Assembly: GCA_951406725.2 (NCBI GenBank)
Contig: OX597823.1
Coordinates: forward strand, 2,046,001-2,110,000
Direction: 5' to 3'
Origin: Octopus vulgaris
Lineage: Eukaryota
Length of the DNA stretch: 64,000 nucleotides
Positions 59,564-60,223 of the stretch are shown here, piece by piece. The position numbers and the translations under genes were made by a program. The notes beneath the pieces were generated by a model that was given only the letters and a program-made list of their open reading frames with translations, was not told the origin of the DNA and made no database searches. How positions within the stretch are numbered: the first letter of the stretch is position 1; each line of letters starts with the position of its first letter.

Positions 59564-59823
59564 TATACATACATATATGTATATATATTTAAGTAGTTGA
59601 ATGAATTATCTTAGTATGGATAATTCGGTTAACCGATACCCGGGTAGCAAATTCACGTCAGAAAACACGGTTGAAGCTACATGCCAAGGGCAGAGATCAC
59701 GTGCTTTCGTGTGGAAATTTGTGTGTTTATTTTACTATAAATAAATGAAAGAATGGAGTCGAACGACGATTTAACAAAATTCCTTCTCATCAGGAAAGAC
59801 AAGGAACTTGATAAGTTCCTTGT

Positions 59824-59905
59824 CTTGCCTGATGAGAAGGCGGCATAATGCACCCTTTATTCCTTCGGAATTAGGAATATGCAGTCTTCGAAACATATGT
59901 CGAGA
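59824..59905 (+). ncRNA. Type I hammerhead motif inside a foldback element
   Basis: CTGATGA-GAAGGC...GTCTTC-GAAAC-atat-GTC-gaga. Stem I is imperfect. Confidence 0.72.
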
Positions 59906-60223
59906 TTAAAGGAATTTTGTTAAATCGTCGTTCGACTCCATTCTTTCATTTATTTATAGTAATATATATATATATATATGTACATATGTCTGCAGATGTC
60001 TGACCAGCAAAGTGAAGCGGCTGACCTCCCCTGTTCGAAGGTTACAATGGACGCAGGTTCGTGTGTCATATAGCTAGCTAGAGGCGATGGCCTCTTGGAG
60101 ATAATCCGCGACAGCTTTAGTCTTATATTTATAGACTACCATATTAGTTTGGCGATAACTATTAATATCCAGTAACGCTGCCGTAATCTCCTTTAGAGAG
60201 ACTTAGTAATTTTAATATTTCTA

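Follow-up and report, generated by a model that had tools for sequence, protein, structure and literature searches.

Endonuclease-bearing (EN+) Penelope-like elements (PLEs) are described as having an inverted, 5'-truncated copy beside the main copy, a tail on one side only, a hammerhead ribozyme in the pLTR and microhomology at the joins, and in the Adineta Penelopes also an Asn-rich insert in the ORF (accessible portions of PMC8557442 and PMC3846280) and palindromes of 18 and 38 bp at the inverted junction (PMC3846280). For the Poseidon element PAc of Anolis, the accessible part of PMC11167929 reports, from in vitro experiments, a pair of internal sites of RT initiation on either side of the tail, an AT-rich target, cutting and extension of both strands, and the use of uncleaved RNA, hammerhead cleavage being dispensable for insertion. 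PLE hammerheads have been reported as weak and dimer-dependent (PMC4209133, in its available part), and in the available sections of both PMC8557442 and PMC11167929 the formation of inverted ends is called unresolved. The animal non-LTR retrozymes are small, low-GC units with a type I hammerhead and a short stem III, arranged as head-to-tail repeats of 150-450 bp and expressed as circles (PMC7229834, in its available part).

We analysed a 64,000-nt stretch of the Octopus vulgaris genome (contig OX597823.1, positions 2,046,001 to 2,110,000 of the forward strand; hereafter the window, to which plain coordinates refer), in which a PLE insertion of about 378 bp lies at 59585-59962 with TA runs on both sides. 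The family to which it belongs has an ORF with RT and GIY-YIG domains, tandem or inverted pLTR copies with a tail at one end and a hammerhead in the pLTR, as EN+ PLEs do, and also shares with the published elements the inverted 5'-truncated copy, the microhomology joins, the Asn-rich insert and, with Adineta, the palindromes at the inverted junction. It differs in the tail, which is about 145 nt of non-coding 5' UTR as compared with the 30-40 bp given in those portions of PMC8557442 and PMC3846280. The likeness to PAc includes two start sites that delimit the tail, the AT-rich target and, as proposed below, the cutting and extension of both strands and insertion without a need for hammerhead cleavage, whereas initiation in PAc is described at non-homologous sites and here it falls in TA-like patches about 145 nt apart. 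The type I hammerhead with short stem III, the small size and the low GC are shared with the animal retrozymes, but the studied element is the head-to-head stump of a coding element. The foldback is real and largely ordinary: it consists of two short terminal fragments of a highly abundant PLE, in a layout already published. The locus alone matters little, and it is the family that forms a large natural record of how PLE inverted ends are built.

A sequence-only reading had described a ribozyme foldback at 59732-59962 with perfect outer arms of about 54 nt, an inner palindrome placing CTGATGA on both strands and a complete GAAAC-ATAT-GTC half on the plus strand of an element ending in (TA)n, and all of this was borne out. 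Each outer arm (59732-59785; 59909-59962) has a length of exactly 54 nt, and the two are complementary throughout. In the inner palindrome, 59782-59809 pairs with 59813-59840 at 27 of 28 positions around a 3-nt loop, the sole mismatch being 59795/59827. CTGATGA is found at 59829-59835 on the plus strand, its minus-strand copy lies within the inner arm, GAAAC-ATAT-GTC occupies 59890-59901 and (TA)n follows directly after 59962. The folding check that had been proposed gave an energy of -137.1 kcal/mol (z = -22.8), and none of 200 shuffles was equally stable. The insertion exceeds the limits first given by about 145 nt on the minus strand, reaching to about 59585, where the second TA run starts. 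Both palindromes belong to one structure, in which the left side, read on the minus strand, mirrors the right side minus 68 nt between two AAGG words.

Positions within the unit were counted from the predicted ribozyme cut site, on which scale outer end A lies at about +57 and outer end B at about +202. The left target flank, TA-rich in sequence and preceded by a (CA)n run, spans 59562-59587. It is followed by the tail of the long arm (end B; 59585-59731, minus strand), whose sequence is that of the 5' UTR, the opening ~143 nt of the full-length unit, and matches L143:1993-2136, and then by the pLTR part of the long (B) arm (59732-59785, minus strand; +8 to +61), which is the left 54-nt outer arm; the whole B arm runs from +202 to +8. 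Between the arms sits a 28-nt inverted copy of the first bases of the A arm (59782-59809, minus strand; -88 to -61), overlapping the B arm by 4 nt of microhomology, and next to it the hairpin tip (59810-59812), in which 59810 is one extra base between the head-to-head copies. The short (A) arm (59811-59962, plus strand; -90 to +61) is a 5'-truncated pLTR copy that ends in (TA)n, carries the type I hammerhead motif (59813-59917, plus strand) and borders the right (TA)n target flank (59963-59980). A target-site duplication was not discernible between insertion flanks that are themselves TA runs.

Compared with a close relative, locus L014, the studied copy matches at 150/152 bases in the A arm (2 substitutions) and at 193/194 in the B arm, plus two 1-nt gaps, and from this near-match of both arms we judge it to be young but not new. 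The earlier inference that identical arms imply a recent origin proved weak, since across the family the pooled divergence between arms amounts to 2.2% (95/4358 sites, 35 pairs), from which simple arithmetic predicts 54 identical bases in roughly 30% of cases. The junction of the inner 28-nt palindrome was encountered a single time in the genome assembly. We compared the region with contigs from 5 different sequencing runs of 24, aligning those of 4 runs to 59562-60222 and those of 4 runs to 59760-59840 (100% likeness). The matches listed were short multi-copy pieces only, none of them bridged the locus-specific junction, and one contig, from another copy, carried the undeleted form.

The copy-number check confirmed a repeat family, the exact inner junction being single-copy. 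Searching the 2.8-Gb genome with the foldback returned 2,421 first-look candidate matches, of which 40 were scored, many of them matching 80-231 of the query at 97-99%, and the tail returned 2,171 first-look candidates. At 30 fetched loci the ~150-nt unit usually runs into the ~143-nt tail and then into (TA)n; all locus samples were the best-scoring 20-30 matches per search and not random copies. Walking upstream from the repeat led to a GIY-YIG C-terminus and then to RT motifs. The full unit at L143 measures about 3.53 kb and is preceded at its 5' end by an inverted tailed copy, and L142 has pLTR copies in both direct and inverted orientation. A single ORF with RT and, at its C-terminus, a GIY-YIG endonuclease was recognised by its motifs in L062, L142 and L144, and the tail is the non-coding first ~143 nt of the full-length unit, directly upstream of the ORF start. 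In the L142 ORF a long Asn-rich linker separates RT and EN (aa ~480-740). If transcribed by read-through, the thousands of such hairpins in the genome could yield double-stranded RNA.

The RT and GIY-YIG domain call is based on motifs and on a homolog search, in which 332 proteins were found; the 120 listed are mostly around 700 aa, the best named one among them is from Argonauta hians, one row carries PF00078 and one is named GIY-YIG endonuclease. In Pfam the 4 ORFs submitted gave weak unrelated matches only, with no RT or GIY-YIG family at threshold, and a PDB sequence search with the ORF gave nothing useful. Synonymous and nonsynonymous variants were counted in 27 loci plus the reference. 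For variants found in at least three copies the ratio was 41:19 in the RT core and 10:6 in the N-terminal part of EN (singletons 95:187 and 16:29, respectively), and 30:47 in the linker (singletons 83:205), so that the Asn-rich linker is under weaker purifying selection. Given that synonymous changes predominate among these recurrent variants in both the RT core and the EN N-part, the family is an autonomous lineage.

The protein carries most of the motifs of the Hydra clade. DKT is present in L142 and L144, YRDD in the studied family and RWL in L142, while the neighbouring family at L063 has RWK; among the 120 listed homologs, 104 have DKT and 90 have RWK. At the C-terminus of L144, CxxC and CxH lie on either side of a conserved E and N in EN, in which no CCHH motif was seen on inspection by eye. 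No cysteine occurs within the 30 aa preceding EN in any of the 39 linker segments, a set in which certain loci appear twice, and CxC-x3-8-C is found in 95/96 EN-bearing homologs, with the exact CxCx5C in 73/96. According to the accessible part of PMC8557442, Hydra-clade elements are alike in DKT, YRDD, an RW-type motif, the C-terminal GIY-YIG, the CxxC and CxH around E and N, insertion into (TA)n and the presence of a hammerhead; they differ in having the CxCx5C linker, RWK where the studied family has RWL, and units of less than 3 kb as compared with ~3.5 kb here, the larger size being due to the Asn-rich linker. Because the CxCx5C linker is missing we filed the family as Hydra-like and not as plain Hydra, an assignment made from motifs, and the linker is probably absent by secondary loss. 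This linker has been proposed to steer (TA)n targeting, and a linker-less family that still ends in (TA)n is a test case for that idea.

The plus-strand hammerhead consists of stem I with an internal loop, CUGAUGA (59829-59835), a long stem II, GAAA (59890-59893) and a palindromic stem/loop III (59893-59900), with the predicted cut after 59901. It has the type I core, CUGANGA and GAAA..UH closed by stems I-III. In the largest stem II class, counted from loci that were not fully de-duplicated, 66/70 motifs have a palindromic loop III and 65/70 the first four pairs of stem I, and the other families in the fetched loci have loop III palindromes and paired stems of their own, the two varying in concert. 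Rfam at gathering score gave no match in the 64-kb window. In the studied copy, stem I lacks its second pair owing to a change at 59827. Forcing the hammerhead fold costs 25.2 kcal/mol in the 231-nt RNA and 10.5 in the studied arm alone, as compared with 3.3 in a typical copy, and the foldback rod is predicted to sequester the ribozyme, leaving the hammerhead of the studied copy disabled. It is probably a dimer-type ribozyme. A second hammerhead was sought on the minus strand, where CTGATGA is present and the rest of the insertion has no GAAA. The flanks of loci L001-L146 contain at least four further hammerhead families with a palindromic loop III.

How the two ends were put together was examined across the family. 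In a tail-selected sample of 29 other loci, a head-to-head partner was found in 23 (22 short and 1 full-length) and none in 6. Over 80 loci there were 53 head-to-head junctions; 9 were left out as complex or unclassifiable, and in the remaining 44 both outer ends could be classified. All 44 pairs combined one A end with one B end (no AA, no BB), and AA was possible, since 27/44 pairs came from tail-less queries. The inner ends were uncorrelated (Spearman 0.05, p = 0.76), so a correlation of arm lengths was rejected: A reaches further 5' in 24/44 pairs and B in 18/44, the two ends fall within 3 nt of each other in 2/44, and in 5/44 the arms share no overlap. Joins had at least 2 nt of microhomology in 18/44, were blunt or had 1 nt in 8/44, and contained inserted bases in 18/44 (1-4 nt in 6, at least 5 nt in 12), several of the insertions being visibly copied from nearby sequence.

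The arms of one insertion agreed at 66/76 segregating variant sites and were discordant at 10/76, compared with 14% agreement between different insertions (35 pairs). These common variants show that both arms come from one source lineage, though not necessarily from one RNA molecule. Eleven variants were confined to the two arms of one insertion and could reflect snap-back copying or gene conversion. Sites A and B both lie in short TA-like patches, and the breakpoint shifts by a few bases, a hint that a short stretch may pair with the target; junction positions were taken from BLAST ends and are themselves uncertain by a few bases.

Five of 50 inner ends fell at -153/-152 (P about 0.01, post hoc) and only 4 reached further 5', so that this cluster may mark a transcript start, with a promoter in the pLTR being possible. 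Inner ends just before the hammerhead (-91 to -88; 4/50, P = 0.65) were not significantly clustered, and a 3' splice site considered at -86 was dropped for want of evidence. Only 1/50 inner ends lay within -2 to +3 of the ribozyme cut site, so the templates were mostly uncut there. The reference copy (L062:6872-9410) has, between -180 and -152, a TATA-like word 28 nt upstream of the end cluster and an initiator-like word.

We consider it very probable that the studied feature represents the insertion of an endonuclease-bearing PLE, truncated at the 5' end and arranged head to head, into a (TA)n microsatellite, likely primed from both cut target ends, its short cDNAs joined by microhomology and its inner palindrome likely added as a snap-back repair insertion. 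The endonuclease would cut both strands within (TA)n, the two target ends would prime on RNA of a single source, one of them at site B and its counterpart at site A, and both cDNAs would stop early. At the studied copy the end of the A-arm cDNA would then have folded back and served as template for 28 nt of its own sequence, after which the 4-nt end so made would have annealed to the B-arm cDNA, with the hammerhead carried along as a passenger from the pLTR. Variants common to the arms and the microhomology joins are in keeping with two primings on RNA of one source, and snap-back SD-MMEJ is described as creating inverted repeats in the available part of PMC5728401. From the earlier suggestion of template switching during reverse transcription, what stands is a retroelement product of reverse transcription and integration, with some change of template at the junction.

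Alternatively, the inner palindrome could be what is left of a B arm that was once longer. In that case both arms would have extended to about -90, and 68 nt between the AAGG copies, from stem II to the cut site, would have been lost by an RT jump or a later deletion. The 4-nt microhomology is equally compatible with such a deletion and the resulting sequence would be identical; L029 has an internal deletion across the hammerhead, and microhomology deletions are reported in PLE copies (PMC3846280, available part). We nevertheless regard this origin as unlikely, though worth keeping in mind, because it calls for a double coincidence, in that the inner ends must lie no more than 2 nt apart (near-equal ends do occur, in the 2/44 pairs within 3 nt) and a separate deletion must be added, whereas snap-back requires one step and copied insertions are common at the joins of the family (the 12/44 with at least 5 inserted nt). 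The proposal made for the Adineta Penelopes in PMC3846280 (available part), that the entire inverted duplication is produced when one cDNA or antisense template primes itself or folds back, would account for the variants common to both arms of an insertion and for the long near-perfect palindromes at L037 and L039. Fold-back of a tail-primed cDNA, however, requires A to be nested in B, which is not so in 24/44 pairs, and 5/44 have no sequence in common at all; the strict A+B rule, the unrelated inner ends and the non-overlapping arms make double priming the favoured explanation and self-priming an improbable one.

That the palindrome is a chimeric artefact of assembly or library construction is very unlikely: the exact inner junction was indeed found only once in the assembly, but the layout recurs at dozens of loci with different junctions under the strict A+B rule, and the inner palindrome has a mismatch, which would not readily be expected from a technical fold-back. 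The sequence-only reading had likened the rod-like RNA to retrozymes or viroids, and a non-autonomous element of this kind, with ribozymes in both polarities, would suit the very stable rod fold and the type I hammerhead; animal retrozymes have also been linked to PLE pLTRs in a preprint (10.64898/2026.07.22.740005, available part). This seems scarcely credible here, given that retrozymes are head-to-tail repeats and the studied element is head-to-head, with no tandem monomer array among the loci mapped, that the exact 231-nt form is single-copy, that the minus strand has no hammerhead and the active fold is so costly in the 231-nt RNA, and that the unit is the end of a coding PLE. In the available parts of the literature, supplements aside, we came across neither a strict count of A+B pairs nor a ~145-nt tail, nor a Hydra-like family that lacks the linker.

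A second PLE family with the same layout is represented at 4441-4751, where a tailed arm on the minus strand and a hammerhead arm on the plus strand both end in (TA)n. The likeness in architecture that had been seen between 4558-4751 and the studied foldback holds; the sequences, described as unrelated, have no BLAST match among the matches listed, yet they belong to related PLE families. Genome search gave 1,238 candidates for this family, and over 137 nt its window copy shares 72% identity with the 3' terminus of the element at L063, whose ORF end matches DNA upstream of one copy of the family at 71%. At the protein level, L063 and the studied family share 39% identity over 643 aa. The L063 element (L063:6966-9827, minus strand; G000:C1) has an open PLE ORF of 954 aa with RWK, DKT, CxCx5C and GIY-YIG, and this Hydra-type PLE adjoins a copy of the studied family.

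The minus-strand tails at 4441-4557 and 59585-59625 both close with a hairpin and then, directly ahead of (TA)n, an AC/AT-rich motif of 14 nt, identical at 12/14 positions, which makes hairpin and motif together a candidate for a conserved RT start signal. We tentatively suggest a broader model, somewhat less probable than its opposite, in which a Hydra-like PLE has lost its cysteine linker and still inserts in (TA)n. Its integration complex would initiate twice on a single RNA, at a pair of fixed sites separated by ~145 nt and always one per target end, guided by the hairpin and the AC-rich motif common to the second family, and many short copies would derive from the 5' end of a transcript whose start lies near -152.

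To the right of the studied insertion, 59985-60222 is another high-copy repeat with very high contig depth, which also ends in (TA)n. Elsewhere in the window, 58857-59520 (minus strand) contains a broken reading frame that resembles a DNA transposase C-terminus, and the fragments at 63191-63895 and 50393-50773 (both minus strand) resemble LINE-type ORF ends.
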